NCBI GenBank assembly: GCA_016840095.1
Contig: JAEOSZ010000111.1
Span: forward strand, 86,612 to 150,611
Direction: 5' to 3'
Length of the DNA stretch: 64,000 nt
Origin: Candidatus Heimdallarchaeota archaeon
GTDB taxonomy: Archaea; Asgardarchaeota; Heimdallarchaeia; Heimdallarchaeales; Heimdallarchaeaceae
Part shown: piece after piece, positions 7,468 through 48,038 of the stretch
How positions within the stretch are numbered: the first letter of the stretch is position 1
Layout: every line of letters starts with the position of its first letter
Position numbers and translations under genes: made by a program
Notes under the pieces: model-generated
Databases searched by the model: none
The model's input: only the letters and a program-made list of their open reading frames with translations
What the model was told of the DNA's origin: nothing

Positions 7468-9735
7468 TTAAGAAAGAAAAGTTAGCTGTTTTAGAACGTT
7501 AAATAATTCATCGATTGGAAGCTTCTGTAATTTCTCATTTTCTCTTGTTTTTCTGTCTAATTCTTTAAGCAAAATACTGAACTCGTAGGCTGATTTAGAT
7601 AATTGTGCAAATGTTGAATCATATTGAGCAATTGATTGTAAATGATCACTAGCATCCTTTGCTGCCTTAGCACCATCGTTAAAGTGAGAAGCAGCTTTGT
7701 AATTTTCCTTATTTGTATTTGCACCAATTCCGAAAATTGCTTTTTTGGTTGCTTCAAGAAAATCAGTTAGAGCTAGCGATAGAATCTTCTTAATTTCTAT
7801 TGCACCCCAATTAATATTTGAATCTTGTAAATTAAACATCTCCTTGTGATTCAACAACTCCAAACAATTTTCTGCAATTCGTTTGTTGATTATATCAAAT
7901 AGTGCAAAATGATTGAAATTATGGTTGATTATGGCAAAATAATTTTCCTTGATAGAATCTTCTCCAGAAAGAGATAATCTATATCCTTTGGCAATTTTAT
8001 CGATTACTGTATTCAAAAACAAATATTGTCTTGATAGTTCAAACAACCGCAATTCTACATCTTGTCCTTGAATAAATGTTTGACTATACCTGTGCTCTAC
8101 CCACTCTTTATCAATAATTGATTCACTACTGAGTTGAGATATTTCAAGAGCCTTTGTAGAGTAATAATGAGCTTTTGCATGATATATTATATCCAAAACT
8201 TCGTTTGATTCTTTTTCTGCAAGATTTTGTTCTAAATACATAGAATTAGCTAAAAACTCCAAACACTCTATGTCTTTTACAATGTAAACTTTCTTTTCTG
8301 TTTTAGGAAGAAAGTATGCAGAAATTTTTACTGTTCCTATATTCTCTAACAGAGGTTGGATATCATCAAGTTTTATTTTAGTATCTGCTTTCTCTATTTC
8401 TATTAATTGTGTAGAAATATCATTGATTGCATATTCCAGTCTTTCAATAAAACGAACAAGATTCTGTTCTGCTTTTTTCATTGCTTCAGAGAGAGGAGTA
8501 TCTTCAAGAAGAGCAATTTTAAGTTCTTGAACAAAATTAAGATAAACAAAGGGGAGACTACTAACATAGTTGATATTTACTTTCAGATCTGGTCTGTTAA
8601 CAATTTCTTCAATTTCTTCAACAATACCTTGGATATTTTCCTTTTTGTTATCTGTTATAGTACTGTTCAACAAAGAGGTTTTAGCAGCCAGTTCTGCAAT
8701 TCCATGAAAGAAGCTATGTACTGTTTGATCTTTCTTTATACCTTCTTTCAGAGCTAAGGTCCTTTCGGTCATTTCTACATTAGAATCTAAGATTGTTAGT
8801 GCCTCTCCTTCAAGTCCCAAAACTAAGTTCAAGTACTCTACACTTGCAATAAAACTATTACTTTTAGCTGCTTCAAAGCTCAATCTTAAATAATGATCTA
8901 TAAGTTCCTTGTTTCTTTGAGCTTGGTTTAAAGAGATGTGGCTAGTTTCAATTTCTTTTCCTTTTAATTCTGGATCTTCAGGAATTTGCTTATAATAATC
9001 TAGTGCGGTTTCAAGGTGACTTAAGCTTCTCTCAAATGCAAAATGAGTGGCTACTGAATCTTTCCACCACCAATCTTCTCCTAATCGTTTTAGAAATTGT
9101 GCAGTGAATGATACATCAAATTCTGCCATAATTAGTTCATAAGCACCTTTTTCCTCAATTAATTTCTCTTCACTATAACCGTTTGGTGATTCTTCTAGTA
9201 GATGAATAATCTGTTGTTTTTGATTAAGCAAAAGGAAAGTTAGCATCACTTCTTCAATATTTGAAGCTCTTGGATGAGAGGAGTCAAAATAGGTTTGTGA
9301 AATAGTGTTGAGTATTCTATATCCTTCGATATATGCAGTACAATATTCAGGTGATGGTTGAGTTCCAAAAATTCCTGTATTTACAATATCTGCATAAATG
9401 ATCATTAGAATTGCTAGTTCCATTTGAAACTCTTGTAAATCTTCTAATTTTTGAGTAATTATGCCTTTTCTCTCCTCATCTGCATCTATTTGTACTCTGT
9501 CTCTTGTCCATTCATCCAGAAAACGACTATAGAGAAGATGAGATAATGAAGAAACATTCGAAAGAGTATCAGCACAGAATCGCGAAAAATCTAACCAAAC
9601 TTGACTAATTTCATCCAAATCATCAATTTGTACAAAAGATTGGTAAATTCTTTCACGTTCTAATTCCATTAATACAAACTGCTTGAATGGTGAATCACTA
9701 AGTAGCTTGACTATCTCTTTCGAAAATAACATCAT
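7468..9735 (-). CDS. Hypothetical alpha-helical protein (755 aa)
   Basis: Long ORF with helical, E/L/I-rich composition; no recognised motif. Confidence 0.7.
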   Translation of the reverse strand: MMLFSKEIVKLLSDSPFKQFVLMELERERIYQSFVQIDDLDEISQVWLDFSRFCADTLSNVSSLSHLLYSRFLDEWTRDRVQIDADEERKGIITQKLEDLQEFQMELAILMIIYADIVNTGIFGTQPSPEYCTAYIEGYRILNTISQTYFDSSHPRASNIEEVMLTFLLLNQKQQIIHLLEESPNGYSEEKLIEEKGAYELIMAEFDVSFTAQFLKRLGEDWWWKDSVATHFAFERSLSHLETALDYYKQIPEDPELKGKEIETSHISLNQAQRNKELIDHYLRLSFEAAKSNSFIASVEYLNLVLGLEGEALTILDSNVEMTERTLALKEGIKKDQTVHSFFHGIAELAAKTSLLNSTITDNKKENIQGIVEEIEEIVNRPDLKVNINYVSSLPFVYLNFVQELKIALLEDTPLSEAMKKAEQNLVRFIERLEYAINDISTQLIEIEKADTKIKLDDIQPLLENIGTVKISAYFLPKTEKKVYIVKDIECLEFLANSMYLEQNLAEKESNEVLDIIYHAKAHYYSTKALEISQLSSESIIDKEWVEHRYSQTFIQGQDVELRLFELSRQYLFLNTVIDKIAKGYRLSLSGEDSIKENYFAIINHNFNHFALFDIINKRIAENCLELLNHKEMFNLQDSNINWGAIEIKKILSLALTDFLEATKKAIFGIGANTNKENYKAASHFNDGAKAAKDASDHLQSIAQYDSTFAQLSKSAYEFSILLKELDRKTRENEKLQKLPIDELFNVLKQLTFLS

Positions 9736-12078: not shown

Positions 12079-12144
12079 ACAGCTTTTCTAGAAAATGTTC
12101 AGTTACAGAATTTTTTTTAATATGTGATTTCATTGAAGAGTGAT

Positions 12145-13266
12145 ATGAAAATAGGAATTAACTGCTTTCCAACTGTGGGCGGTTCAGGTATTGTTGCAAC
12201 ACAACTAGCTATCGAACTTGCCAAAAAAGGTCATGATATCCATCTTATTAGTTACGACACCCCATTTTTACTAAGGACTTTTAGACACCCCAATATTACT
12301 CTAGATTTGGTTGACATTATTTCCTATCCCTTGTTTAAAGATATTGGAGCTCCTTATACAATTTTAGCTGGTTCAAAATTGGCAAAAATCGCAGAAAAAT
12401 CTGATCTTGATTTACTTCATATACACTATGCTATTCCTACGGGAGTATCTGCATATCTTGCAAAACAGATTTCTAATGTGCCTGTTGCAATTACTGCTCA
12501 TGGTTCAGATATACATACACTAGGAATAGATCCAGCCTACAATCCTGTTATATCACATGTTTTTGATAACATTGATGGTTTGTCAACTGTATCAGAATAC
12601 ATGAAAAGGGAGATGGAAGAAAAATTTTCGCATAGTAAGGACATCGAGGTTTTATACAATCCTATTGATATTGAGAAGTACAAAAGAATAGATACTAAGC
12701 TTTGTGATTTTAGAATACAATATGAGAATAATTTTGTACATGTTTCAAACTTCAGACCTGTAAAAAATGCTCCATTTATCGTTGAATCATTTGCTGAAGT
12801 TGTAAAAGAACATCCTGATACAGGTTTAATTATGGTTGGAGAAGGACCTGAGAGAAAGAAATGTGAAGAACTGGCAAACAAATTAAATATCAGAGATAAT
12901 GTTATATTCCAAGGAGTAAGGGTTTCAATCACTCCAATCTATAACTGTGCTTCAGCTCTAATATCTGCCAGTAGCAATGAGAGTTTTGGTTTAACTTTAG
13001 CAGAAGCAATGTCTTGTGAAACTCCAGTTATTGCACCTAAAGTAGGTGGAATTCCAGAAGTAATAGACCATGAAATTAATGGCTATGTCTACGAATTAGG
13101 AAACAATGAAATGTTAACAAAATATATGCTAGAATTGCTAGAAGATTCCCGAAAAGTAAGAGAGATGGGTGCTAAAGGTAGACAAAAAGTTGTAGAAAAA
13201 TTTGAAGCAAGTAAAATTGCAGATAGATATGTTAATTGGTACGAAAGAATTCTTGAAGAACTATAA
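12145..13266 (+). CDS. bshA: N-acetyl-alpha-D-glucosaminyl L-malate synthase BshA (GT4)
   Basis: MKIGINCFPTVGGSGIVATQLA, LLHIHYAIP, TAHGSDI, HVSNFRPVK and ESFGL..AEAM match BshA-specific motifs; convergent with bshC. Confidence 0.85.
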   Translation: MKIGINCFPTVGGSGIVATQLAIELAKKGHDIHLISYDTPFLLRTFRHPNITLDLVDIISYPLFKDIGAPYTILAGSKLAKIAEKSDLDLLHIHYAIPTGVSAYLAKQISNVPVAITAHGSDIHTLGIDPAYNPVISHVFDNIDGLSTVSEYMKREMEEKFSHSKDIEVLYNPIDIEKYKRIDTKLCDFRIQYENNFVHVSNFRPVKNAPFIVESFAEVVKEHPDTGLIMVGEGPERKKCEELANKLNIRDNVIFQGVRVSITPIYNCASALISASSNESFGLTLAEAMSCETPVIAPKVGGIPEVIDHEINGYVYELGNNEMLTKYMLELLEDSRKVREMGAKGRQKVVEKFEASKIADRYVNWYERILEEL

Positions 13267-14883
13267 TCGAGCATTAATATATCCAATTCCTCCTATTGGA
13301 GAATCTTCAGAATAGTAGCGTCGATATGATGCTAAATAATCACTTAAACCTGTTACACTTGCCATGATGAACCAAGGCCAACTTACTTCTTGCCATTTGT
13401 GATTATCATCATACATTCCAAACTGCCAAGATTTGTATTTCTCAATATTACTATTTTGTTTATCGGAGATTTTTGTTATTTCTAACATTTTTGCTTCAAT
13501 AATCTTTGCAAGATTACTAGATTCAGCTGTCAATTGTTCTTGTTCTCCCTTCCTTCTAGCTTTGGCTAATCGTCCTAAAGTTTTAAAGAAATCTCCTGCA
13601 AAAAGAGATAAAGTCTCATCTCCAAGCTCTTGATTTAGATTTTCAATCCATGGAGTATTATATAACATTCTTGTATATTTTACATATATTGGAAACTGAA
13701 GGCCTATTTTTCTAGTTGCTGGAATTACTTGAGCATTGTAGTTTATCTCTCCTGGACCAGAAACTCTGATGTATACTGGCATTATAGATTGAAGCAGAGC
13801 TTGATTAGTATCTAATCGAGGTACTAATCTCAATGGAAGATTAGATAGATCAATGTTTTTTTTATCCACGACAAAAGAGTAGACTGTTTTATCGTTTGGA
13901 CATATCCCAGTGAAGTAAAGTGAGTCTTCCTTATCTTTGCAAGATAATTGAATCCTGTGACCATCTTTTGGACTCTCATAAAAGAAAGGAGCGTAATCTT
14001 CATCTTTCTTTGCAGTTGTAAACTGATATCCCAATTTTTCAATTGCTTCTGTAGCTTTATTAAATTCTTCAATATATTCAGTTCGTTTTTTGATAAAGGG
14101 TCTGTATCCATCAACTGATAGTTTCCTTATCTCTGGATGAGATGAAGGAAAGAAAACAACACCCCAATCATTGAAGATATTGGCTTGGATTCCCCAGAGT
14201 AAAGTTATCCATTCTCCTATATCTTTGGAAGATCTATAAGTTTCTCTAATGAAAGTGAGAATATGGTCTACTTTTTCTGTGAAAACCTTCTGAGAGGTTT
14301 TATCCAGGGAGGTTCTAAACTCGTTAAAGATATTTCTAATAATAGAAAGATTTTCTTCAAGCCATAAATATTCATTTGAAGCAATTTTGCTAGAAACTAA
14401 ACCATCAATTGCACTAGTTAACGAAATTGGTTTGCTTGCAGATGATTGATTATTGGGAAGATGAATGGTAGTGATTTCAGGTTGAATACTATCATGAGTA
14501 TTAACTAAGAACATAGGAACTAAGTAATGATTTTTCATTTTACTAACATCTGAGATTGCAGCAACTGTAGCAATTTTATTCCCAATTATACCTGAACCCC
14601 CAAAAATTGTAGCTTGTTGTCCCCCTAAAACTACTCCTTTGTGAATTAAATCAATATTGGCTTCAACTTTTGATGTCAGTAAACCCAAATCTTGGTGATA
14701 ATTTTTGAGTACACGTTTCAACTCTTCTATCTTATTGGAATCAATTGTAATTTTAGGCAATTCTTTAGCTACCTGAATTGAGTCTGAAATTGTTCGAGGA
14801 ACGTTTCCATAGAAATACTTGATATCTGATTTATTTGATCCATCATTAACGAATTTTTCGTACATATCGCCTATAGTTCCCAT
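13261..14883 (-). CDS. bshC: Bacillithiol biosynthesis BshC-like cysteine-adding enzyme
   Basis: VVLGGQQATIFGG...NK, VPMF..THD, APFFY, LLQSIMP, VSGPGEINYNAQ (compare BshC TGQQ...GGPGEIAY); 540 aa; overlaps the bshA stop region. Confidence 0.78.
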   Translation of the reverse strand: MGTIGDMYEKFVNDGSNKSDIKYFYGNVPRTISDSIQVAKELPKITIDSNKIEELKRVLKNYHQDLGLLTSKVEANIDLIHKGVVLGGQQATIFGGSGIIGNKIATVAAISDVSKMKNHYLVPMFLVNTHDSIQPEITTIHLPNNQSSASKPISLTSAIDGLVSSKIASNEYLWLEENLSIIRNIFNEFRTSLDKTSQKVFTEKVDHILTFIRETYRSSKDIGEWITLLWGIQANIFNDWGVVFFPSSHPEIRKLSVDGYRPFIKKRTEYIEEFNKATEAIEKLGYQFTTAKKDEDYAPFFYESPKDGHRIQLSCKDKEDSLYFTGICPNDKTVYSFVVDKKNIDLSNLPLRLVPRLDTNQALLQSIMPVYIRVSGPGEINYNAQVIPATRKIGLQFPIYVKYTRMLYNTPWIENLNQELGDETLSLFAGDFFKTLGRLAKARRKGEQEQLTAESSNLAKIIEAKMLEITKISDKQNSNIEKYKSWQFGMYDDNHKWQEVSWPWFIMASVTGLSDYLASYRRYYSEDSPIGGIGYINARL

Positions 14884-14964
14884 ATTTTAGAGTAAAATTG
14901 TATCTTCTTAATAATTTTTATATGACTTATCTTTTAACTAGTTATAGCTAACAGGTGATAGAAA

Positions 14965-15327
14965 ATGGTTGGAAATCATAATTTTGCTCATATAGAATTA
15001 CCAGTAGATGACGTTTCAAAGGCAAAAGAGTTCTATGAAAAAGTCTTTGATTGGGAAGTTACTATAGAAACAGGATTTGAAGACTATGCCTTCTTCAGAG
15101 AAAGTGAAGATGGAATAGGAGGAGCTTTTCAGAAAGCAGAAAAAATGCTTAATGAAGAAATGATTATTTACATCTCAACTGATGATATTGGAAAGACCTT
15201 CGAAAAGATTATAGCTGCTGGTGGAGAAATAATTCAAGAAAAAACTAAGATTTCAGATGAATATGGGTTTTATGGTAAATTCAAAGATTCTTGTGGGAAT
15301 ATACTGGGATTATGGACTCGAAATTAG
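14965..15327 (+). CDS. VOC/glyoxalase family protein
   Basis: AHIELPVDDVSKAKEFYEKVFDW, IIAAGGEI, FKDSCGNILGLW. Confidence 0.9.
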   Translation: MVGNHNFAHIELPVDDVSKAKEFYEKVFDWEVTIETGFEDYAFFRESEDGIGGAFQKAEKMLNEEMIIYISTDDIGKTFEKIIAAGGEIIQEKTKISDEYGFYGKFKDSCGNILGLWTRN

Positions 15328-15815: not shown

Positions 15816-16970
15816 ATGAAATTTAAAACAATCATTCGCAAGTATCTCTTCCGTTTTTTAGTAATTGCCATTATGGTTGGAACTTTGTTATATTTCTTCT
15901 TAACTTTAGATGTTAAGGGTTCATTTGTGCTCTATAAATCTGTAACAGTTTATCTTCTACTATTAGCTCTTCTTTTTATGATTATTAGTGCAATAGTCAA
16001 AGCTTATAGGTTTTACATATTAGTTAAACCTTCATCTCCTGATCTCAAATTTATCAAATTTCTATTACCTTATTTTGTTGGATATGGTTTTAGCGTTCTA
16101 GGACCTTTTAAAACTGGAGAAATAGCAAGTGTTGAGATAAACAAAAGATCACTAGATGTTCCTCGATCTTCTTCCTTGGCAGCTTTAGCACTTTTCAGAA
16201 TAGTAGATATGTTTGTTGTTCTGGTTTTTTTCATAGTTGCACTTGGTACAACTGTTCCTCAGATAATTACTAACATTGAACAAAAAAGTGCATTACTTCA
16301 AGCTCAGTCATCGGTTTATTACATAAAACAAAAAATCCCTATCTGGGAATTTTTATCTTCTGGTTTAACTGGAAATCTTCAGCTAGCAATTCAAATTGTC
16401 TTTTACATAGCGATTATAGCAACAATAGTTCTTACTTTTATTTTGTTCTTTCCTCCAGTTGGGAGATTTGTGCTGAAAATTATTATCAAAGTCACTGGTA
16501 AAATATCACTTAAAGGTAAAATATGGTTGGAAACCAAAGTTGTCAAAGCTTTGGATGAGTATTATGATTCGCTTAAGCTTCTCTATACGAAGAAAATAAT
16601 TGCTATTTTAGTTATTATTACAACTGTATTTAGATGGATAATAGAGTTTTATTCACTAAAATTCACACTCATGGCTTTTGGTGGAGATATATCTTTAGTA
16701 AATTCTGCATCAGTAACATCAATTACACTACTAGTTGGTTTACTAACTTTCGTTCCAGCAGGTTTGGGAACTGGTACAGTAACTACTCAATCTCTGTTCA
16801 AAGGACTGGATATCTCCTCAACAGTTGCTGGAGCTACAATAATATTTCAAACCCTTATTGGAACAGGTCTTACACTTTCGATTGCAGCAGTATCCTCCTT
16901 TTTCTTAAAGGAGAAAAAAGAGGAGATAAATGATGAAATAAGTGAAGTAATATCAGAAGAGAATGAGTAA
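15816..16970 (+). CDS. Lysylphosphatidylglycerol-synthase TM-domain / UPF0104 flippase-like membrane protein
   Basis: Multiple TM helices; KAYRF, PFKTGEI, FRIVD, VPAGLG. Confidence 0.8.
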   Translation: MKFKTIIRKYLFRFLVIAIMVGTLLYFFLTLDVKGSFVLYKSVTVYLLLLALLFMIISAIVKAYRFYILVKPSSPDLKFIKFLLPYFVGYGFSVLGPFKTGEIASVEINKRSLDVPRSSSLAALALFRIVDMFVVLVFFIVALGTTVPQIITNIEQKSALLQAQSSVYYIKQKIPIWEFLSSGLTGNLQLAIQIVFYIAIIATIVLTFILFFPPVGRFVLKIIIKVTGKISLKGKIWLETKVVKALDEYYDSLKLLYTKKIIAILVIITTVFRWIIEFYSLKFTLMAFGGDISLVNSASVTSITLLVGLLTFVPAGLGTGTVTTQSLFKGLDISSTVAGATIIFQTLIGTGLTLSIAAVSSFFLKEKKEEINDEISEVISEENE

Positions 16971-20009: not shown

Positions 20010-21233
20010 ATGACTGAATTAAGAGAAAAACTTCTAAAAGAAGAATTTCAAAAGCAAAAAAACATCAAAGGTTTTCCAGTTGAAGCACTTTTAGATGTTT
20101 CAAAAGATGAATCTAAATTTTTAGTAGAATTAGGACTACAAACGATTGAAGATCTAGCAAATAATTGGAATGAACACTATGAAAAAATGATTAAGAAGAT
20201 TCCAAAGGAAAGAGTCAATAGCTGGATAGCTGCTAGTCGATTATTATCTCTGGAGGAAACCGAAAAAGTTACAACAGGTGCAAAGATAATTATGGTTGGA
20301 ATTGATAATGCTGGAAAAACTTCTTTGTCCATAGCATTGAAGCATAGAGGTGCCTTATCATTATTATTCCAAAAATTATATGCTTTAACACCAACACGAG
20401 GATTACTAAGGAGTAAAATTGAAGTTTTTGGATTGGATGTTCATATGCATGAATTGGGTGGACAGAGTATATATCGTGAAGATTACTTAAACAATCCACA
20501 ACAATATTTTATTGGCACAGATGTCATTATTTTTGTAATAGATGTTCAAGCTAAAGACAGATTTGAAGAGAGTTTTGAATATCTAAAACAGATTACCAAT
20601 GTCACAAATGCTTTGAAGCTTAAAGTTCCTTGGAAAATATTCTTTCACAAATCAGATCCTGATTATGAAATAGATGAGAAAAGTACAGAAGTGTTCAGCT
20701 CAATTATTGATTACATGTCTAATAACTGTCCTTTCTTCAATCCTGCAAAAGATTTCTTCAGAACAAGTGTGAAAATACGTTCATCGATTCTAGGTGCTTT
20801 CTCACACATCTTTAGAGAAATTTCACTGATTGAACAAGGCATTCAAGAAGCATCTCAGGAAGTTGCTCAACAACTAAATGCAGATTTCTTTGGTCTATAT
20901 GATTCAAGAAGCAATGTTTGTTTTGCACAGTATAAAACAGATGAAAGATATATTGATATTGCTCATAATGCATATTATGAAGCCATTGAAACGATTGTGA
21001 ATATTCGAGAGGCATTTTTACGAATACGTAGATATACCTTGGATGATGATATTAATGAGATATTCATTTTGAGAGATTTGCGGTTCGGTGGAGATATTTA
21101 TATCATGGCAGTACTGACGCAAGATGAGGAAATGGCAAGAAATCTCGATCAGGATGCAGTACAAGAGATCATTGAAAATCAACTAAGAGATTGGATTGAA
21201 TTTAGAGGATACGCAGCTTTCCCCCTTGATTAA
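20010..21233 (+). CDS. Rag/Arf-like small GTPase with N-terminal helical domain and C-terminal roadblock/longin-like domain
   Basis: G1 GIDNAGKTS, G2 PTRG, G3 ELGGQ, G4 HKSD (Rag-type HKxD), G5 RTSV. Confidence 0.85.
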   Translation: MTELREKLLKEEFQKQKNIKGFPVEALLDVSKDESKFLVELGLQTIEDLANNWNEHYEKMIKKIPKERVNSWIAASRLLSLEETEKVTTGAKIIMVGIDNAGKTSLSIALKHRGALSLLFQKLYALTPTRGLLRSKIEVFGLDVHMHELGGQSIYREDYLNNPQQYFIGTDVIIFVIDVQAKDRFEESFEYLKQITNVTNALKLKVPWKIFFHKSDPDYEIDEKSTEVFSSIIDYMSNNCPFFNPAKDFFRTSVKIRSSILGAFSHIFREISLIEQGIQEASQEVAQQLNADFFGLYDSRSNVCFAQYKTDERYIDIAHNAYYEAIETIVNIREAFLRIRRYTLDDDINEIFILRDLRFGGDIYIMAVLTQDEEMARNLDQDAVQEIIENQLRDWIEFRGYAAFPLD

Positions 21234-21337: not shown

Positions 21338-21429
21338 GCCCCGATAGCTCAGCCTGGCTTAGAGCGGTGATCTCGTAAATACTTCGAGAAAGTCGCAAGA
21401 CGGGGGTTCAAATCCCCCTCAGGGCTCCA
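21338..21429 (+). tRNA. tRNA-Thr(CGT) with 13-nt intron at 37/38 (21378-21390), CCA encoded
   Basis: Acceptor GCCCCGA/TCAGGGC (one C.A mismatch); anticodon stem GTGAT/GTCGC; CT-CGT-A, intron AATACTTCGAGAA, then A38; CTCG/CGAG central BHB helix; T arm GGGGG-TTCAAAT-CCCCC; U73. Confidence 0.9.
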
Positions 21430-32687: not shown

Positions 32688-33013
32688 GGACGATGCAGAA
32701 ATACCCCTGATTCTGTTCGGAAGCCATTAGGATCTTCCTGGCAACATTCATCTAAGCACTTTACCCAGTTCTTACGAACTCTACTTAAGCTTGCTCCACG
32801 ATGTTTGACCGTTTCATCGTATCCTAGTTTCTTCTCAGCAATTTATTCTAAACATGTCACCAGTCTATTTATCGCATCATTGTTATCGAAACTAGGGCGT
32901 TCGTTTCTGTTTCAAGAGCCATATTCTCATATGGTGGATTTACATCCACATCGTTATTATGGAGTCAGGAGGTTCCTCAGCAATAAGCCGAAAGTTGCCC
33001 TTTTGCTTCGTCC
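32688..33013 (-). ncRNA. rnpB: RNase P RNA
   Basis: Minus strand 5' GGACGAAGCA...GAGGAACCTCCTGA..., internal ACAGAAACGAA and GAAACGG, 3' ...AACAGAATCAGGGG...TGCATCGTCC. P1 GGACGA/TCGTCC and P4-region CCTCCTGA/TCAGGGG pairings; about 326 nt. Confidence 0.88.
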
Positions 33014-33072: not shown

Positions 33073-34284
33073 CTAGATAACTTTCAGATTTTTACCTATT
33101 TTCTCCATTGCTGCTAAGATATAATCGATTTCTTCCTCAGTATGAGTTGCCATTACACAACATCTTAATCTTCCTGCATCTAGAGGGACAGCTGGATAAA
33201 CTATTGGTGGTACCAATATACCTGCTTTTCTCATTTGTTTTGCAAATCGAAAAGTTTTGACATCATTTCCAATAATGACAGGTACAATGGGCGTATCCTT
33301 ACTCTTTAATGTATCATACCCTAGCTCTTTAACACCATTAATGAAATGAGTATAGTTTTTCTGTAATGCTCTTATTCTCTCTATATCCGTTTCAATTATT
33401 TCTATTGCTTTAAGAGCTACAGCAGCTGATACTGGTGGAAGAGCTGCACTGAAGATAAACGCATTAGAATTGAACTTTAGATAAGTAATAACATCCTTAT
33501 TAGCAGCAATATATCCTCCTATTGATGGAATTGCTTTACTTAAAGTTCCCATGTAAATATCAATAGCTCCAGGTTCAAGATTGAAATAATCATCAATTCC
33601 TCTTCCATTCGGTCCTATAGTTCCTATTGAGTGAGCTTCATCTACCATTGTAAATGCTTTGTGTTGTTTTGCCAATTCAATAATTTCTGGCATCGGAGCT
33701 ATATCTCCATCCATACTATAAACTCCATCTACAATAACAATCACACGTTTGTAATTCTCACGATGTTCTTCAAGAACTTCAGCTAAGTTATCCATGTCAT
33801 TATGATTGAATCTCTTCCAATCTGCTTTTGACAATATACAACCATCATATATACTCTGATGATCATATTTGTCAATAATGATCAAATCATCTTTTCCAAA
33901 CAATGTGGATATCAAAGTCATATTAGTTACATAACCGCTGCTTAGAACCATTGCATCCTCAGTTCTTTTAAATTCAGAAATTTTCTTTTCTAGAGTATGG
34001 TGTAAATCTGTAGTTCCTGTTAGTAACCTAACACCACCTGCTCCTACACCATATTTATCCATAGCTTCATGTCCTACTTTTATGATTTCAGGATGAGTAA
34101 TGAGTCCCAAATAACTATAAGATCCCAACATTAGTAATTCTTGACCATCCACTAGAACTTTACTAGATGCAGCATTTTGGATAGGGAGCATGTAAGAGTT
34201 TAAACCAAGTTTCTCAAAGTACTTGGCTCTCTTTAAGAAATTCTTAATTTTAGTATTATCTGTGATTTTAGTAATTTTTCTCAC
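33073..34284 (-). CDS. PLP-dependent alpha-oxoamine synthase (serine palmitoyltransferase / BioF / Kbl family)
   Basis: MLGSYSYLGL, G.R.L.GT, DHQSI.DG, HNDM, DGVYSMDGD, VDEAHSIG, GTLSKA (PLP Lys), FSAALPP, RLR...ATHT. Confidence 0.9.
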   Translation of the reverse strand: MRKITKITDNTKIKNFLKRAKYFEKLGLNSYMLPIQNAASSKVLVDGQELLMLGSYSYLGLITHPEIIKVGHEAMDKYGVGAGGVRLLTGTTDLHHTLEKKISEFKRTEDAMVLSSGYVTNMTLISTLFGKDDLIIIDKYDHQSIYDGCILSKADWKRFNHNDMDNLAEVLEEHRENYKRVIVIVDGVYSMDGDIAPMPEIIELAKQHKAFTMVDEAHSIGTIGPNGRGIDDYFNLEPGAIDIYMGTLSKAIPSIGGYIAANKDVITYLKFNSNAFIFSAALPPVSAAVALKAIEIIETDIERIRALQKNYTHFINGVKELGYDTLKSKDTPIVPVIIGNDVKTFRFAKQMRKAGILVPPIVYPAVPLDAGRLRCCVMATHTEEEIDYILAAMEKIGKNLKVI

Positions 34285-36893: not shown

Positions 36894-37544
36894 TTAAAGC
36901 TCCGAATGCTTTTTCTTGTAGAAGGGACTATTTCTTTTTAGAGGAATTATATTGAAAGCTTCTGCATATTCTGTAGCTGCTTGAGCTCCTCTCATCTTTG
37001 TTCTACTCTTGTGAAAGTCTATGTAAAAATTCTCTCCACCTTTAGATAATTGTGATTCATAGCATTTTATTGATTGTTCTTTTTTCTCATAATACTCGCT
37101 AATATCTACTAAAATGTGTGGATTGGGAATCAAAATAGTTGTTTCAGCAACATACAGTTTGGAAACAAGATGAGAATTATCATACTGTGTTTCATGAGCT
37201 GCCCACTCAATACCTTCTAATGCGATTTTGAATGTTGTTCTGTGATCAATATGGTAATCGTTCTCTAAGTGAGTTATTACTATTTCGGGTCGAAAGTCAA
37301 GAAGATAGGAAATGAAATCTTTTATTAATTCTGATTCTTTGCTTTTAACATCAGGATAATCAAAAATCACAGGTTTCTGGACACCTAACACTTTAGTTGC
37401 ATTAAGATACTCCTCTTTTCTGACTGAATCAGAAGAAAGACAAAGTGTGCTGACTTCATTGCCTAAAGCTACATATTTTGCTATGGTTCCACCAGAACTT
37501 AATGCTTCATCATCTGGATGAGCGAATACAAATGCTATTTTCAC
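36894..37544 (-). CDS. PIG-L/LmbE N-deacetylase, candidate BshB
   Basis: FAHPDDE..SGGTIAKY, R.EE, PEIVITH...HIDH, VDISEY...K..I.CYESQ, RGAQ...YAEAF. Confidence 0.8.
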   Translation of the reverse strand: MKIAFVFAHPDDEALSSGGTIAKYVALGNEVSTLCLSSDSVRKEEYLNATKVLGVQKPVIFDYPDVKSKESELIKDFISYLLDFRPEIVITHLENDYHIDHRTTFKIALEGIEWAAHETQYDNSHLVSKLYVAETTILIPNPHILVDISEYYEKKEQSIKCYESQLSKGGENFYIDFHKSRTKMRGAQAATEYAEAFNIIPLKRNSPFYKKKHSEL

Positions 37545-37599: not shown

Positions 37600-38613
37600 T
37601 CATTCTTCTAAATATTTTACTACTTCAATACCTGCTTTATAACCATCTCCTATAAGAATAGGAGTGTAATCCAATTCTCCCTTAATGGTTCCAGCAGCAA
37701 ACAAACCTTCTATATTTGTTGAATTATTTATTTGTGTGTTAATGAACCCATCTTCAGTTGTTGAAATATTAAGTTCTTCAAAAATTGATAAATCTGGTTT
37801 ATCCTTTAGCTCTATGAATACACCATTTACTGAAAGTTCTTTCATCTCACTTTCTTCTTGATACCTTAATCCTTCTACATTTTGACTTCCAAAGATTTCC
37901 ACAGTATCAAGATTAACATTATTTCTTATTGTGATGTTAGAAGCTGCAGTTAGTTTCTTTAGAAATCTTTTATCGCAACCTAACTCATCATCTGGACATA
38001 GAAGAGTTACTTTCCTACAGTACTTTCTTAGAAAAAGAGCTCCTCTAGCTACAAAATTACCTGTGCCTATAATTACAACCTTTCTTCCTCGAAAGAGAGC
38101 TCCATCGCAGACAGCACAATGTGAAACACCTTTGTGAACAAAAACCTCTTCTCCTTTTATTGTGTGATGAAGTTCTGGAAGACCGGTTGATATTATAATT
38201 GATTTAGCTTCAATTGATTTTTCTTCAGTGTTGATAATGAACTTATTTTCTTCTTTAGATACAGATTTGACCATTTCATTAGTAATGTTCAATACTGGAA
38301 CAACTTGATTAACATCTGACATGATTTCTTCTTTAGGAATTTCTTCTGCAGAATCAGAAGATATTTTGTCTTGAATAAACTCTAAGTTGAGACTCTGCAC
38401 TTGGTCAACGATTTGTTGGATAAAATCAACACCAATAATTTTGCTAATACCTGGCAGAGTTTCTAATTCTCCTTTCTTTGCTGTATTTGAATCGAATGGA
38501 ATACCAAACAATTTAATCTTTAAATCAGGATTTTTACTATATGCAGCAATAGCTGCTGATAAACCAGTAGCACCTGAACCAATAATAGCCAAATCACAAT
38601 TCTCTGCATCCAT
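37600..38613 (-). CDS. Thioredoxin reductase-like flavoprotein with degenerate NADPH-binding motifs
   Basis: IIGSGATGLSAA; GVSHCAVCDG (CxxC); GTGNFVARGA and LLCPDD replace GGGNSA and HRR; GLFAAGT. Confidence 0.82.
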   Translation of the reverse strand: MDAENCDLAIIGSGATGLSAAIAAYSKNPDLKIKLFGIPFDSNTAKKGELETLPGISKIIGVDFIQQIVDQVQSLNLEFIQDKISSDSAEEIPKEEIMSDVNQVVPVLNITNEMVKSVSKEENKFIINTEEKSIEAKSIIISTGLPELHHTIKGEEVFVHKGVSHCAVCDGALFRGRKVVIIGTGNFVARGALFLRKYCRKVTLLCPDDELGCDKRFLKKLTAASNITIRNNVNLDTVEIFGSQNVEGLRYQEESEMKELSVNGVFIELKDKPDLSIFEELNISTTEDGFINTQINNSTNIEGLFAAGTIKGELDYTPILIGDGYKAGIEVVKYLEE

Positions 38614-43028: not shown

Positions 43029-46000
43029 ATGAAGCTTCCTTATGTAGTACGTAAACTAAGAAAGTTTACAATATACTCGATTGCATTTTATGTGCTTATT
43101 TTGGTAATGTTTTCACCCGTTCCACAGATTTTTGCAGCATCATCTTCTGCAGGAAATCCTTGGTTCTGTGATGATTCAAACTTGTTAGAGAGAGAAATAG
43201 GAACAGAGATCATCCTTGTAGATCCAGCTATAAAAAGGGATATACGTCCAGAAGAAGCTGGATTTTCTTATACTCCTCAAACACAAACAGGTGATACTAG
43301 TAATCAATTCTCAACTACTGATTATCTTGAAGTAAATCACAATGAAGTCTTCAATTTAACAAACTTCGATGATACAGGAAAAATAAATAACAGTTATTCA
43401 ATCTCCAGTATTTCTGGGTATACAAATGATTCTTTAAATTATGGAATAACTGAAATGAAATCTATAGATGATTATTACACAATTGAAGATGAATATGATG
43501 GAGCAATAACATTCGCAACAGGTAGTGTTTATACCTTGGCTCAAGCTTTTGATGTAAATTGGGATTACGCATTTTATTATGGAAGTGAACTACTACTTGC
43601 ATATGACACAGGTGCCTTACCTTCATTAGAAGATTATGAGCTTTCCTTGCATTTAGTCGGAGAATCTGGTGGAGATCCAGATATGAGCAATATTATAAGT
43701 AATTGCACCTCAAACCCTTTCTCTCAATCCAATCAATATGCAGGCCTTGGTTTCGAGTTCTTTGATTTTACAGATGTTCGATTAACAAAGGGTACTTATT
43801 TCATTGTGGCTAACTTGTCAAAAGTTGATACAGATGATGCTCCAAAACATTTTCAATGGGCTAAAAATGACCATTCTTCTGATGGTGTTGATAATGGTAA
43901 AACAGTTACAAGAAATCTTCTTTTTCCAGGAACTTGGAGTGTTGCTACATCATATGATCTTACGCTAATAAACTCACTTTATCCTGTTGATAGTAATAAT
44001 AATTCAATAGTCTTTACTGATCCAGATGAGATAAATTTACAAGATAATGGAGACAGTGTTAGTATAACAACTGAAATTATCTCAAGTTTAGGAACACATG
44101 AACTCACCTCTAATACTTCAATTCAAATTTCTTTCAGTAACACATATACATTCGCAAAAACACAGAGTGGAGGAAGTGTAAATGCTGAATTCTCTGCAAC
44201 AAATGCATCTTTCTGGTCTTATAGTATAGATTGGAATATAACTTGGAATACAGGATTGGTAGATATATCACCCTATTCAAATCTCGTTAGATATCAGATA
44301 GTTTATACACCAACTGATTGGCATGATACAATTTTTGATTTCTACTACAATGGTTCATCAATGCCATCCACTTCAAGAGTTTCTCAAGGTTATCAGATTG
44401 ATTTAGGTTCTAGTGTTTCGCCTGGTGATTGGCGATTGAGTACTAATAGTCCGAACTATCTAAATGATCTTCAGTTGTTAGATGATACAACACCTTCTGA
44501 AAGATTTTTACTTGGCTATTGGATAGGTGGAACCACAGATTCCACAGGTTATGTTGGTTCTAAAATTGTTGCTAATACTTTAGTGCAAGGAGACGGAGGA
44601 GGAACTCCATATAATGAAACAACAGGAAGCTTGAATTATACATTATATGATATAGATGGAAATATTATTCCATTGAAGAGTTCATTACCTGCTAACTTAA
44701 TTTATACTGATACAACTTCATACACTCTTTCTGGAGTAACTCAAGTTAGTGCGGGATATTATACCCCAGAAATATACTTTGATCCTTCAGCAAGTGGATC
44801 TGATTTACCTGGTTTTTGGACTGCAGCTGTTATGTGGCAAAATGGTACAGAAGTTGGTTTCTATTCTCAAAGAATAGTTGTACAAACACAAACCGAACTA
44901 GTTTTAGAATGGGAAGAAGAACCATTTGGAAGTTGGGTAACTTCTGACATAACCAGAAAGGGATTAGATTCAATTTTAGTAAGGGGTTCATATTATAATA
45001 TTAGTGAACCCTATACAACTGGAGTTAAGAACATAATTCCTTCAGCAACTGTAACTTACACAGTCAGTAATGCTTCTTGGAACAAAAATGATGTTTTCAA
45101 TGACTATGCTCCAGATTATAATGCTTCAATATTAGTTGATACAAGCATGGATGTAGGAACCTATACAGTTGATTTCCTTGGAACTGGAGCTTTTCTTGAG
45201 AACAATTCAACAAGCTTCACTTTAACAGTTTTCTATGAACTTGATCTCATTGCTGAATACACTCACTATGAGACAAACTACACGAACAATGTGATATTTT
45301 ATTTGAATCTATTTGATGTGACTGCTTCAGTAAATTTGAGTTTATCACCTAACGATATGACTGTATTCATAAGAAATGGAACAGATTTTGAATTGTTTAA
45401 TCCAGCTGATTATTCATTTAATTACCAAGCATCAACAGAACAGTGGATACTTGATTTCAGTACATCAACAAATAATCTTGCTATTGGTTCATATAATGTA
45501 GAAGTATCAATACTATTGAATAACTACAGAGAAAGTTACTCAGATGATTATGTGTCAGACACTTATACTTTTGAGATTAAAGCTCCTAAAACAGAAATAC
45601 AGGAAATAAGTTATGCAACTTCAATCTATCTTTATCATGATGCAGTTTTTACATTTAATTATGTAGACACAAATCACTCAATTGACTTGGTTACAACAAC
45701 TTATTCAGGTTCAGCAAGTGTAGCCAATGTGGATGTAGCTATTGTTGAAGCACTTGGTGTTTATACTGTAACTGTAACCAATAACAATCCATCAGTTAGT
45801 TCTTTTGATATCTATATTGATATTAGTTTAACAAATTATGAGGCTTTTACAAGCCATCTCTTAGGAAGTCTAACTGTTTTAACAATTGAAACTAGTTTAA
45901 CAGATGTATTGGTACCAACTGAAGTATATGTGGGGTATGTAACATCAATTGTTGTTTATTTTGAAGATACAACACATTCTGAAGCAATCAATGAAATTGG

Positions 46001-48038
46001 TGGGGATGGGCTGTTTGTTACAGTAACTAGTAATGCTACAATATTGATTAGTGATATAAGTTATGCTTTTCTTGGTGGTGGACAGTATAATGTCTCATTT
46101 GTAAATAATGATTATACAATGCCAGGAATAAATGTCACAATAACTATTGGAAGAACAGGATATGATTCAGCTAGCATGTTCTTTGAAATACAGATAATCT
46201 CAATTGACACAAATTCAGATTTAGTAGATATTGCAGATCAAGATATAACAATATACTTTGGAGATGGAACAGTAGTAGAGGTTTACTATTGGGATGATAT
46301 ACTTGGGGATAACGTAACAGAACCAGATATATTCTTAGCTGGAAATGTTTCAGTGACCTTTGACTTTACCTATAATTTTGCTTTTAATAAAACTACCATC
46401 ACAATTGATCCAATTTTTAGCCTTGGAACATTTTATCTGAATATTACGATTATAGAACCTGGTTATGCACCTCAGATGATTCAAATATTAATTACAACCG
46501 AAGAGAGAGTAACGGATATTTACATCAATGCAGGTAATGTAAACAATACTGAATTTGCGAGTGAAATAGTCGACGTATCATTTGATTTCAAAGATTTAAC
46601 TGGAGGTAATGTAAGCATTGACTCTGCTTTAATAGGCGCATTATTTGCCTTAGATAACAGTTCTCTTGTAATAGATGATTATTTCAACTCAATCACGAAC
46701 ACTACGTTTGGTGCTTACTATATAGTATCATTTGAAGCTGATCCATCAGTAGCTGTAGGAACAGTCTACATACTTGAAGTAACCTTTTCTAAGTACGGGT
46801 ATCAAACTCAAACGATAATCATCAGAATTACTTATCATCCTGCGAGGGATTATGATATTGTTATTGAAATTGAAGGTGATATAAGGCAGCTTGAAACTAT
46901 AGAATTCATTGTTTTAATTGATAACATCACTTTTGAAGCAATGGCAGCTGGTGCTGATGCTTACATACACCTTCAACCAACATTTACTGGTGAGACTGTT
47001 AGAATCACTTATACCTTTACTTATGCAAATGGAACTATTGTAACTTACTGGGAGGATATTGATATTGCAATAAATCCTTCAGGAGGATATATAGCCAGTC
47101 TTGAAGTCGACATCCCATGGCATGTGTTGAATATCTCTTATTATGTAAGTTATTCTCCTACAGGAAATAACCAATATGTTATTCTTTCAAAATCCACAAC
47201 CGAGGTTTTAGATATAGTTGATACTCCAACATTTATTGGTTTACTAACTTATCTTTTCAAGGAATATACACTCTACATGATTGTTGGTATTGTTGCTTTA
47301 GCTGTCATAATTATTGCAATTATAATTGTTCAATTTACAATAATTCGACCTAAGAAACAGAGAAAGAAAGAAGGAAAGAGAAAATATCTTGATAAAATCT
47401 CTAAAATCTTAACAAGTGTTCTCACTCTGAGAAAAGTAATTGTAGTACACATCGAATCAGGATTACCTGTCTATGAATGGGATCTTGGTGGTGAAATTAC
47501 AGTAGATTCTTCCCTTGTAACTGGTTTCCTTCAAGCAGTGGCTGGAATGGGAAGCGAAATAAGTGGAGGACAAACTGGAGCAGTTAAAAAGATAGATTAC
47601 GGACAATTTGTAGTTTCAAGTGCTTCAAAAGACTGTATCACAGCTTATCTCTTTAGCACTGGTGATATCTCAATGGATGTTGAAACCGGTATTGCTAACT
47701 TTGTTGAATGGTTTGAGAAAAGATTCCAATCAGTTTTACATGAATGGGGTGGAATAACAGATGAATTCACTAAAAATTCTAGACAAATAATAGATACTCT
47801 TAGTGAGGAGCTTTTTGTTTGGACACTACATCCTCTTTCTATAAATACATTAAGAGAAAAGGATGCTGCAAAACTAAGTGCTCTCGGTCAAAGAATATTC
47901 AAGTTTATTAAAGACTATAAAGAGGTTACAATTAGTGTGGCTCTCGAATATTTCAACAAAACACCAATCGAAGAAACACTATCTACCTTATTCAATATGA
48001 TTGATGAAAAATACTTATTGAGAATGACCTTCAGATAA
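43029..48038 (+). CDS. Giant single-pass surface protein (1669 aa): Ig-like ectodomain, TM, cytoplasmic longin-like domain
   Basis: Signal peptide; T/S/N/Y-rich beta repeats (K/T-GY motifs, many sequons); TM YMIVGIVALAVIIIAIIIV followed by RPKKQRKK; LRKVIVVHIESGLPVY...DSSLVTGFLQAV. Confidence 0.82.
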   Translation: MKLPYVVRKLRKFTIYSIAFYVLILVMFSPVPQIFAASSSAGNPWFCDDSNLLEREIGTEIILVDPAIKRDIRPEEAGFSYTPQTQTGDTSNQFSTTDYLEVNHNEVFNLTNFDDTGKINNSYSISSISGYTNDSLNYGITEMKSIDDYYTIEDEYDGAITFATGSVYTLAQAFDVNWDYAFYYGSELLLAYDTGALPSLEDYELSLHLVGESGGDPDMSNIISNCTSNPFSQSNQYAGLGFEFFDFTDVRLTKGTYFIVANLSKVDTDDAPKHFQWAKNDHSSDGVDNGKTVTRNLLFPGTWSVATSYDLTLINSLYPVDSNNNSIVFTDPDEINLQDNGDSVSITTEIISSLGTHELTSNTSIQISFSNTYTFAKTQSGGSVNAEFSATNASFWSYSIDWNITWNTGLVDISPYSNLVRYQIVYTPTDWHDTIFDFYYNGSSMPSTSRVSQGYQIDLGSSVSPGDWRLSTNSPNYLNDLQLLDDTTPSERFLLGYWIGGTTDSTGYVGSKIVANTLVQGDGGGTPYNETTGSLNYTLYDIDGNIIPLKSSLPANLIYTDTTSYTLSGVTQVSAGYYTPEIYFDPSASGSDLPGFWTAAVMWQNGTEVGFYSQRIVVQTQTELVLEWEEEPFGSWVTSDITRKGLDSILVRGSYYNISEPYTTGVKNIIPSATVTYTVSNASWNKNDVFNDYAPDYNASILVDTSMDVGTYTVDFLGTGAFLENNSTSFTLTVFYELDLIAEYTHYETNYTNNVIFYLNLFDVTASVNLSLSPNDMTVFIRNGTDFELFNPADYSFNYQASTEQWILDFSTSTNNLAIGSYNVEVSILLNNYRESYSDDYVSDTYTFEIKAPKTEIQEISYATSIYLYHDAVFTFNYVDTNHSIDLVTTTYSGSASVANVDVAIVEALGVYTVTVTNNNPSVSSFDIYIDISLTNYEAFTSHLLGSLTVLTIETSLTDVLVPTEVYVGYVTSIVVYFEDTTHSEAINEIGGDGLFVTVTSNATILISDISYAFLGGGQYNVSFVNNDYTMPGINVTITIGRTGYDSASMFFEIQIISIDTNSDLVDIADQDITIYFGDGTVVEVYYWDDILGDNVTEPDIFLAGNVSVTFDFTYNFAFNKTTITIDPIFSLGTFYLNITIIEPGYAPQMIQILITTEERVTDIYINAGNVNNTEFASEIVDVSFDFKDLTGGNVSIDSALIGALFALDNSSLVIDDYFNSITNTTFGAYYIVSFEADPSVAVGTVYILEVTFSKYGYQTQTIIIRITYHPARDYDIVIEIEGDIRQLETIEFIVLIDNITFEAMAAGADAYIHLQPTFTGETVRITYTFTYANGTIVTYWEDIDIAINPSGGYIASLEVDIPWHVLNISYYVSYSPTGNNQYVILSKSTTEVLDIVDTPTFIGLLTYLFKEYTLYMIVGIVALAVIIIAIIIVQFTIIRPKKQRKKEGKRKYLDKISKILTSVLTLRKVIVVHIESGLPVYEWDLGGEITVDSSLVTGFLQAVAGMGSEISGGQTGAVKKIDYGQFVVSSASKDCITAYLFSTGDISMDVETGIANFVEWFEKRFQSVLHEWGGITDEFTKNSRQIIDTLSEELFVWTLHPLSINTLREKDAAKLSALGQRIFKFIKDYKEVTISVALEYFNKTPIEETLSTLFNMIDEKYLLRMTFR

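Follow-up and report, generated by a model that had tools for sequence, protein, structure and literature searches.

Genes for a predicted three-enzyme route to bacillithiol or a near relative of it in a heimdallarchaeal genome

Which small thiol does the cytoplasm of an Asgard archaeon hold? The question matters for understanding how oxygen and electrophiles were dealt with by the relatives of the eukaryotic ancestor, and it is raised by a stretch of 64,000 nucleotides (positions 86,612 to 150,611 of contig JAEOSZ010000111.1, assembly GCA_016840095.1, Candidatus Heimdallarchaeota archaeon), which is called here the window. In it lie two convergent, overlapping genes, bshA and a bshC-like gene, together with a gene of the VOC/glyoxalase fold that is divergent from the latter; all three are found where the original prediction, a reading of the letters alone, had placed them. 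From this arrangement it had been proposed that the organism makes bacillithiol or a variant of it. The part of the proposal that stands draws on the assignment of BshA, the fold of the BshC-like protein, a newly added candidate for BshB and the conservation of the genes across the order. What finds no support is the link to the VOC gene, along with the implied novelty.

Our answer is that the window probably specifies three enzymes that together would make bacillithiol or a very close analogue, a prediction that is well supported at the level of sequence and structure, and that now includes a candidate for the deacetylase. In the proposed scheme, BshA would join UDP-N-acetylglucosamine (UDP-GlcNAc) and L-malate to give GlcNAc-malate, as its equivalog-level match suggests. 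A deacetylase of the PIG-L/LmbE family would then convert GlcNAc-malate into glucosaminyl-malate (GlcN-malate), a step to which its fold family, its intact metal ligands and its conserved neighbourhood in related lineages point. Finally, the Asgard-type BshC-like protein, a Rossmann enzyme resembling the class I aminoacyl-tRNA synthetases, would add cysteine to the free amine, to judge from its fold, its motifs and its strict co-occurrence with the other genes. The product would be a low-molecular-weight thiol acting as redox buffer and as cofactor for thiol S-transferases, and its oxidised form might, more speculatively, be recycled by a paralogue of thioredoxin reductase (TrxR) that is paired with the deacetylase.

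The core of the claim, namely that bsh genes occur in Asgard archaea, is already known, because Rawat and Maupin-Furlow (Antioxidants 2020, PMC7278568, section 13) reported BshA and BshC homologues in this group: they listed 39 InterPro matches for each of the two proteins in archaea, mostly Asgard, and concluded that archaea may make bacillithiol. Names are also in place, since NCBI already calls proteins of the window's type BshA and BshC; in Thorarchaeota SMTZ-45 both are still labelled "hypothetical protein". Our literature search found no paper beyond PMC7278568 that connects bacillithiol genes with Asgard or Heimdall archaea, and a RefSeq-based survey (PMC12719100) recorded no archaeon with a complete pathway. 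What is added here is an assignment of three genes that includes the deacetylase, a distinction between Asgard-type and canonical gene sets, their distribution over the lineages and a candidate reductase. These additions make the published suggestion easier to test.

The three enzymes and their host

Is the glycosyltransferase a BshA? By every sequence test applied it is, and its use of malate is predicted. On TIGR03999, the NCBIfam equivalog model for BshA, the protein scores 366.1 bits (E 1.9e-109) over profile positions 1-374 of 375. The curated cut-off is 273.7 bits, a score that among 14 control genomes only those of B. subtilis and D. radiodurans reach. The MshA model gives 71.8 bits (cut-off 462.5) and any other GT4 family at most about 122 bits. 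Both domains of the GT-B/GT4 architecture are matched (PF13439 and PF00534), and the comparison with the solved B. anthracis enzyme (3mbo/2jjm) extends over residues 7-377 with 274 bits and E 1.3e-80. Relative to those structures the substrate loops and the HYAIP segment are kept; the loops are the N-terminal GGSG (within PTVGGSG) and the substrate motifs VSN..K (within HVSNFRPVK) and ESFG (within NESFG), of which ESFG is sugar-binding (motif roles as given in PMC10361700). The assignment of bshA made in the original prediction is thereby raised to an equivalog-level profile match, and the motifs quoted there (FPTVGGSGIVAT, HYAIP and HVSNFRPVK in BshA; GGQQ and GPGEINY in the BshC-like protein) are all present. 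The frame is open from a GTG at 12124 (12124-13266, plus strand, 380 amino acids), and the ATG used here as the start is the likely one, because the resulting length agrees with the 371-373 amino acids of close homologues.

The BshC-like protein is a more distant relative of its bacterial namesake. It scores 112.6 bits on the equivalog model TIGR03998 (E 2.3e-32), does not reach the cut-off of 265.8 bits, and covers profile positions 30-446 of 529. The Pfam family PF10079 (Rossmann-like_BshC) is matched with 94.9 bits against a cut-off of 27 (E 8.9e-27), and the BshC model is the sole NCBIfam match, with none to MshC. Identity to B. subtilis BshC is about 16-18%. A PDB search with a profile of 36 Asgard homologues (alignment A2) returned B. 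subtilis BshC, 4wbd, as its sole match (E 8e-24), and an AlphaFold2 model built from the same alignment reached a predicted local distance difference test (pLDDT) of 93 and a predicted template-modelling score (pTM) of 0.93. Its best structural match is again 4wbd (Foldseek E 1.9e-20, TM 0.68). In the VIA superposition, 449 residues align with a root-mean-square deviation of 2.7 Å and Z 34.5, model residues 1-538 lying on residues 11-539 of the chain; the second match, class I lysyl-tRNA synthetase (LysRS), has Z 21. The C-terminal coiled-coil domain PF24850, which canonical relatives carry, has no match in the sequence, although the structural alignment extends to residue 538. The model thus gives the protein the fold of BshC, and its sequence puts it in a divergent clade that is specific to Asgard archaea. 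The original prediction had called it divergent, as its score confirms, and had named a failure to model onto the BshC fold as a ground for refutation; in fact the model superposes on that fold over its full length.

The borders of this clade are sharp. An exhaustive profile search over 1.84 billion representatives showed a clear break, with about 40 full-length representatives matching the whole Asgard-type profile at 260 bits or more, and canonical BshC proteins remaining at 130 bits or less, with a match confined to about the first 400 positions. All named members of the high-scoring set are Asgard archaea (Heimdall, Thor, Odin, "Promethearchaeota" and Harpocratesius), and the motifs GGQQ and GPGEINY are invariant across the clade. 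The clade has an ancestral Cys-rich, zinc-ribbon-like insert that is absent from 4wbd and falls at about residues 300-330 of the window's protein in alignment A2. Its cysteines number four in Thorarchaeota and in family f12 (C-x4/5-C ... CPxC) and three in the other Heimdall families. In the window's own genus the insert is degenerate, with the ligands mostly lost.

Where is the deacetylase? The genome holds three PIG-L genes, all below the cut-off of 182.5 bits set for the BshB1 equivalog TIGR04001. The one in the window has BshB1 as its best NCBIfam match, at 89.5 bits; the other two score 93.3 and 65.8 bits. It reaches 82.8 bits on PF02585 (gathering score 28.2) and 47.9 bits on the MshB model (cut-off 224.4). 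Its metal-site motifs AHPDDE and DYHxDH are present, and H9, D11, D12 and H101 are invariant in an alignment with cluster-linked orthologues and canonical BshB1; the zinc ligands, the His and Asp of HPDD and a later His, are identified in PMC5790435. Neighbourhoods in other lineages point to this one of the three paralogues. PIG-L genes adjoin bshA/bshC in a sister family (L047), in Thorarchaeota (L044, L045 and L052) and in another Asgard family (L043 and L053), and their products are 33-41% identical (BLAST) to the window's PIG-L. When the L047 and L045 proteins are searched back against the genome, they match only this one of the three, so that the relationship is reciprocal. Of 41 relatives, 40 have a single match to it at E of 1e-20 or less; the gene directly adjoins bshA in families f3 and f4, and in the window's genus it lies on the same contig at a distance of 13-26 kb (22 kb in the window). 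By these sequence comparisons it is the orthologue of the PIG-L that adjoins bshA/bshC in other Asgard lineages, and as such the candidate BshB.

Directly upstream of this gene and on the same strand is that of a divergent TrxR-family flavoprotein, and the two are paired in 25 of 25 loci of the genus. The flavoprotein scores 203.5 bits on TIGR01292 (cut-off 343) and 69.5 bits on the YpdA model TIGR04018 (cut-off 339.9), and is therefore a better fit to TrxR; it retains a CxxC motif (CAVC) and has an insertion of about 40 amino acids. Three further TrxR paralogues are encoded elsewhere in the genome and include better TrxR candidates, the top one at 298.6 bits. A role of the paired paralogue as disulfide reductase for the thiol is a reasonable but speculative suggestion. 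TrxR-like genes that adjoin bshC in family f3 were considered as its orthologues and rejected, being only 23-25% identical to it.

All of these genes come from a contig of 150 kb within a genome bin of 3.44 Mb (completeness 89%, estimated contamination 7.8%). To judge by its sequence, the host is an archaeon of the family Heimdallarchaeaceae, because the contig carries an archaeal RNase P RNA, and the closest homologues of BshA and of the BshC-like protein bear the NCBI name Candidatus Heimdallarchaeaceae archaeon.

Distribution and ancestry among the Asgard archaea

How far does the gene set reach? Among 41 relatives, BshA is at or above its cut-off in 39, and the BshC-like protein occurs in all 41, its gene mostly adjoining bshA and convergent with it. 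Across 400 Asgard genomes, BshA reaches the cut-off in 146 and PF10079 is found in 156, in the same families: those of the window's order (f1-f4), Gerdarchaeota (f7), Thorarchaeota (f31), f12 and f32. No BshA was found in f20, the largest family sampled (0/135), or in f5, which belongs to the window's class (0/22). In f12, the BshC-like gene is immediately preceded by a gene of about 406-409 amino acids that has the same orientation and overlaps its start (L043:3997-5217; L053:6079-7308); the L043 copy of this upstream gene has the transglutaminase-core domain PF01841. A few f20 genomes, too, have a pair formed by a PIG-L gene and an Asgard-type BshC-like gene (L054:5620-8031, L055:5158-7574, L056:5238-7654 and L057:567-2983); no BshA-like gene was seen in the fetched flanks of these pairs, nor in any f20 genome at E of 1e-55 or less.

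The Gerdarchaeota are a case of their own. In genome G082 (L042:5162-8564) there is a bshC-bshB-bshA operon whose three products score 386.5, 222.5 and 423.8 bits, all above the equivalog cut-offs, and therefore a full canonical pathway exists in Asgard archaea. It follows that these archaea have two kinds of gene set, Asgard-type and canonical, and that the complete canonical pathway is found in archaeal metagenome-assembled genomes, contrary to the RefSeq-only survey (PMC12719100).

Were these genes inherited or imported? The original prediction had named phylogeny as the way to tell horizontal from vertical origin, and the trees built here are quick ones (LG+G4, unrooted), the BshA tree being without Bacillota or Deinococcota sequences. 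In the BshC tree, a branch with an SH-aLRT of 99 separates the Asgard-type proteins from the rest, and their subclades follow the lineages. The Gerdarchaeota sequences sit within the Bacillus-type clade, and a metagenomic set is sister to the Asgard-type clade. One member of that set (L059:9354-13057) belongs to an operon of PIG-L, BshC-like and glycosyltransferase genes within a large polysaccharide gene cluster; another (L060:8067-13050) has an ATP-grasp gene on either side and lies on an archaeal contig, which carries the gene of ribosomal protein S26e as well. Neither of the two BshC-like proteins has a precomputed Pfam match.

In the BshA tree, a branch (99) sets apart the sequences with bacterial names (FCB group and Acidobacteria), with Gerdarchaeota nearest to them and Heimdallarchaeaceae far away, and no archaeal BshA falls within the sampled bacterial clade. 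Identity among BshA proteins is 59-92% within the family and drops to about 40-44% towards bacteria and other Asgard lineages alike. Because of the BshA tree, this drop and the conserved synteny, the gene set appears to be a long-standing resident of Asgard archaea and not a recent bacterial import. The separate Asgard-type BshC clade agrees with this, within the reach of such trees.

Weighing the possible products

Several points weigh against bacillithiol or a very close analogue as the product. The BshC-like and BshB-like proteins are far under their equivalog cut-offs (112.6 against 265.8 bits and 89.5 against 182.5 bits), the nearest non-Asgard relatives of the Asgard-type BshC stand in polysaccharide or ATP-grasp gene contexts, and the trees are quick, unrooted and lack BshA from Bacillota and Deinococcota. 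For bacillithiol itself, no detection in archaea is on record (PMC7278568). Nor has anyone reconstituted the BshC reaction in vitro, not even with the B. subtilis enzyme (PMC5790435, PMC4360819), and therefore the amino acid added here cannot be read from the sequence. The usual partners of the thiol were not found either: the genome, at 89% completeness, gave no match to BrxA/B (PF06491) or BrxC/YtxJ (TIGR04019), and YpdA/Bdr (TIGR04018) stays under its cut-off genome-wide, with a best score of 71.7 against 339.9 bits. A gene resembling coenzyme A (CoA) disulfide reductase is present (532.6 bits, slightly under its cut-off), so CoA could be the main thiol. On the supporting side, no gamma-glutamylcysteine ligase (GCS2) was found in the genome. 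What of enzymes that would use the product? The genome has 11 genes of DinB_2, the fold of the bacillithiol S-transferases, and DinB_2 is near-universal in bsh-positive families; it is also common in the bsh-negative family f5 (21/22), and it therefore lends only weak support to the use of bacillithiol.

Could the compound be a different one? The divergent BshC-like enzyme might attach another group to GlcN-malate, or the product might be modified further, as in N-methyl-bacillithiol, and the result would be either a novel sugar-based thiol or a conjugate that is not a thiol. We regard this as unlikely, while giving it more weight than the two alternatives discussed below. In its favour are the low identity to B. 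subtilis BshC and the score far under the cut-off, the ancestral insert of three to four cysteines that 4wbd lacks, the fit of canonical BshC to the clade profile over only about its first 400 positions, and the fact that the substrate of BshC is not established even in bacteria. Against it, the model keeps the entire BshC fold, the C-terminal domain included, both signature motifs are invariant, the protein is coupled to an equivalog-grade BshA as closely as in bacteria, and no conserved methyltransferase or other tailoring gene was seen in the neighbourhood. That no soluble thiol is made, and that a GT4 enzyme, a PIG-L protein and an enzyme resembling aminoacyl ligases instead build or decorate a glycoconjugate, for instance a GlcN-containing lipid or polysaccharide, is improbable. 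The combination of GT4 and PIG-L is indeed the enzyme logic of GlcN-phosphatidylinositol synthesis (PIG-A and PIG-L families), one of the nearest non-Asgard BshC-like relatives belongs to the polysaccharide-cluster operon described above, and a gene with the transmembrane domain of lysyl-phosphatidylglycerol (lysyl-PG) synthase comes after the locus. Yet BshA scores 366 bits on a malate-specific equivalog against 72 on MshA and at most about 122 on other GT4 families, its substrate loops are all conserved with the solved enzymes, and in the window's family the locus lies outside any polysaccharide cluster, its conserved neighbour being a ribosome-biogenesis gene.

Least credible of all is that the genes entered by recent bacterial transfer or by contamination of the bin, in which case they would say nothing of Asgard biology. 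The contamination estimate of 7.8% and the canonical, bacterial-looking Gerdarchaeota operon, whose BshA is nearest to the bacterial clade, could be taken in that sense. Contamination, however, is ruled out by the synteny data, and recent transfer is rejected on synteny and phylogeny together: the genes share a 150-kb contig with the archaeal RNase P RNA and with further genes of archaeal or Asgard type, they recur with conserved synteny in 39-41 of the 41 relatives, the Asgard-type BshC stands apart as a clade in which every named member is Asgard, and BshA is as distant from bacteria as from other Asgard lineages.

The preferred reading, a pathway to bacillithiol or a very close analogue, can be carried one step further, though only tentatively. 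A number of Asgard lineages (Heimdallarchaeaceae with its sister families, Thorarchaeota and others) may hold an old, Asgard-specific sugar-thiol pathway, with a BshC clade of its own marked by the ancestral zinc-ribbon insert, a BshB clade of its own, and a dedicated CxxC TrxR paralogue that replaces the bacilliredoxins and YpdA. Whether bacillithiol or a new analogue, the compound made by this pathway would be the first redox buffer of the glycoside thiol kind in Archaea. Were this so, a BshC that combines a zinc ribbon with a fold akin to aminoacyl-tRNA synthetases could help to identify the activated cysteine donor of BshC.

Neighbouring genes and comparison with known systems

The features discussed so far, and others of the window, are collected in Table 1. 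The neighbour that had drawn attention is the VOC gene, which the original prediction took for a functionally linked, thiol-using enzyme. It is separated from the BshC-like gene by an 81-bp gap (bshA and the BshC-like gene overlap by 6 bp), it matches PF00903 with 54.2 bits (E 2.3e-14), it reaches no NCBIfam family at its cut-off, and it is single copy in the genome. Its position beside bshC is seen in three of the nine same-genus loci with enough flank, the window's own counted, and no locus of another family shows it. With its adjacency so poorly conserved, the VOC gene was rejected as part of the thiol system, and it is probably an unrelated, variable neighbour outside it. In other loci, a lysyl-PG-synthase-TM gene directly follows bshC.

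Table 1. Features of the window, with coordinates counted from its first letter.
Feature	Coordinates	Strand	Remarks
Open reading frame	7468-9735	-	755 amino acids; without Pfam match
BshA gene (bshA)	12145-13266	+	ATG start at 12145; 373 amino acids
BshC-like gene, putative cysteine-adding enzyme	13261-14883	-	540 amino acids; Asgard-type
VOC/glyoxalase-fold gene	14965-15327	+	120 amino acids
Lysyl-PG-synthase-TM-domain gene	15816-16970		
Small GTPase	20010-21233	+	407 amino acids; Gtr1/RagA and Arf family matches
tRNA-Thr(CGT)	21338-21429	+	92 nt; anticodon at position 37
RNase P RNA, archaeal	32691-33010		
BioF/Kbl-family acyltransferase	33073-34284	-	Dependent on pyridoxal phosphate (PLP)
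PIG-L/LmbE-family deacetylase, candidate BshB	36894-37544	-	PF02585; BshB1 best NCBIfam match
Divergent TrxR-family flavoprotein (TrxR-like)	37600-38613	-	TIGR01292 match; CxxC present
Open reading frame	43029-48038	+	1669 amino acids

Some of the other features deserve a word. The small GTPase is of a eukaryote-like kind that is typical of Asgard genomes, and an intron is probable in the tRNA gene. The PLP-family acyltransferase scores 393.8 bits on models of serine palmitoyltransferase, nearly the same as on those of BioF and Kbl, and is under the cut-off of every model.

How does the gene set compare with the known routes to sugar thiols? Mycothiol synthesis in Actinobacteria (MshA, MshB and MshC) follows the same logic of a GT4 enzyme, a PIG-L-family deacetylase and a cysteine ligase that resembles class I aminoacyl-tRNA synthetases and acts on a GlcN glycoside; the window's proteins are remote from it, with 71.8 bits on MshA (cut-off 462.5), 47.9 on MshB (224.4) and no match to MshC. 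The Gerdarchaeota operon belongs to the same phylum and class as the window and has the same three functions in clustered genes. It differs in that its proteins are above the bacterial equivalog cut-offs, whereas the window's set is of the divergent Asgard type and its bshB is unlinked.

A further counterpart is the bacterial BshA/BshB/BshC set of B. subtilis, S. aureus and D. radiodurans (3mbo, 5d00 and 4wbd). From it the window departs in the BshC and BshB that stay under their equivalog cut-offs, in a BshC clade with an ancestral Cys-rich insert and a C-terminal domain that PF24850 does not match in sequence, and in a genome where BrxA/B/C and a YpdA-type reductase were not found and the deacetylase is paired, throughout the genus, with a CxxC TrxR paralogue. 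The host, moreover, is an archaeon, a domain in which the compound has never been detected. Nevertheless, the same three enzyme families are present in the window, which shares with the bacterial set an equivalog-level BshA, a superposable BshC fold, the motifs GGQQ and GPGEINY and the metal ligands of PIG-L. The co-occurrence and clustering of bshA and bshC are common to the window's lineage and to bacteria, and it was through this very association that bshC was first discovered in the latter (PMC5790435).

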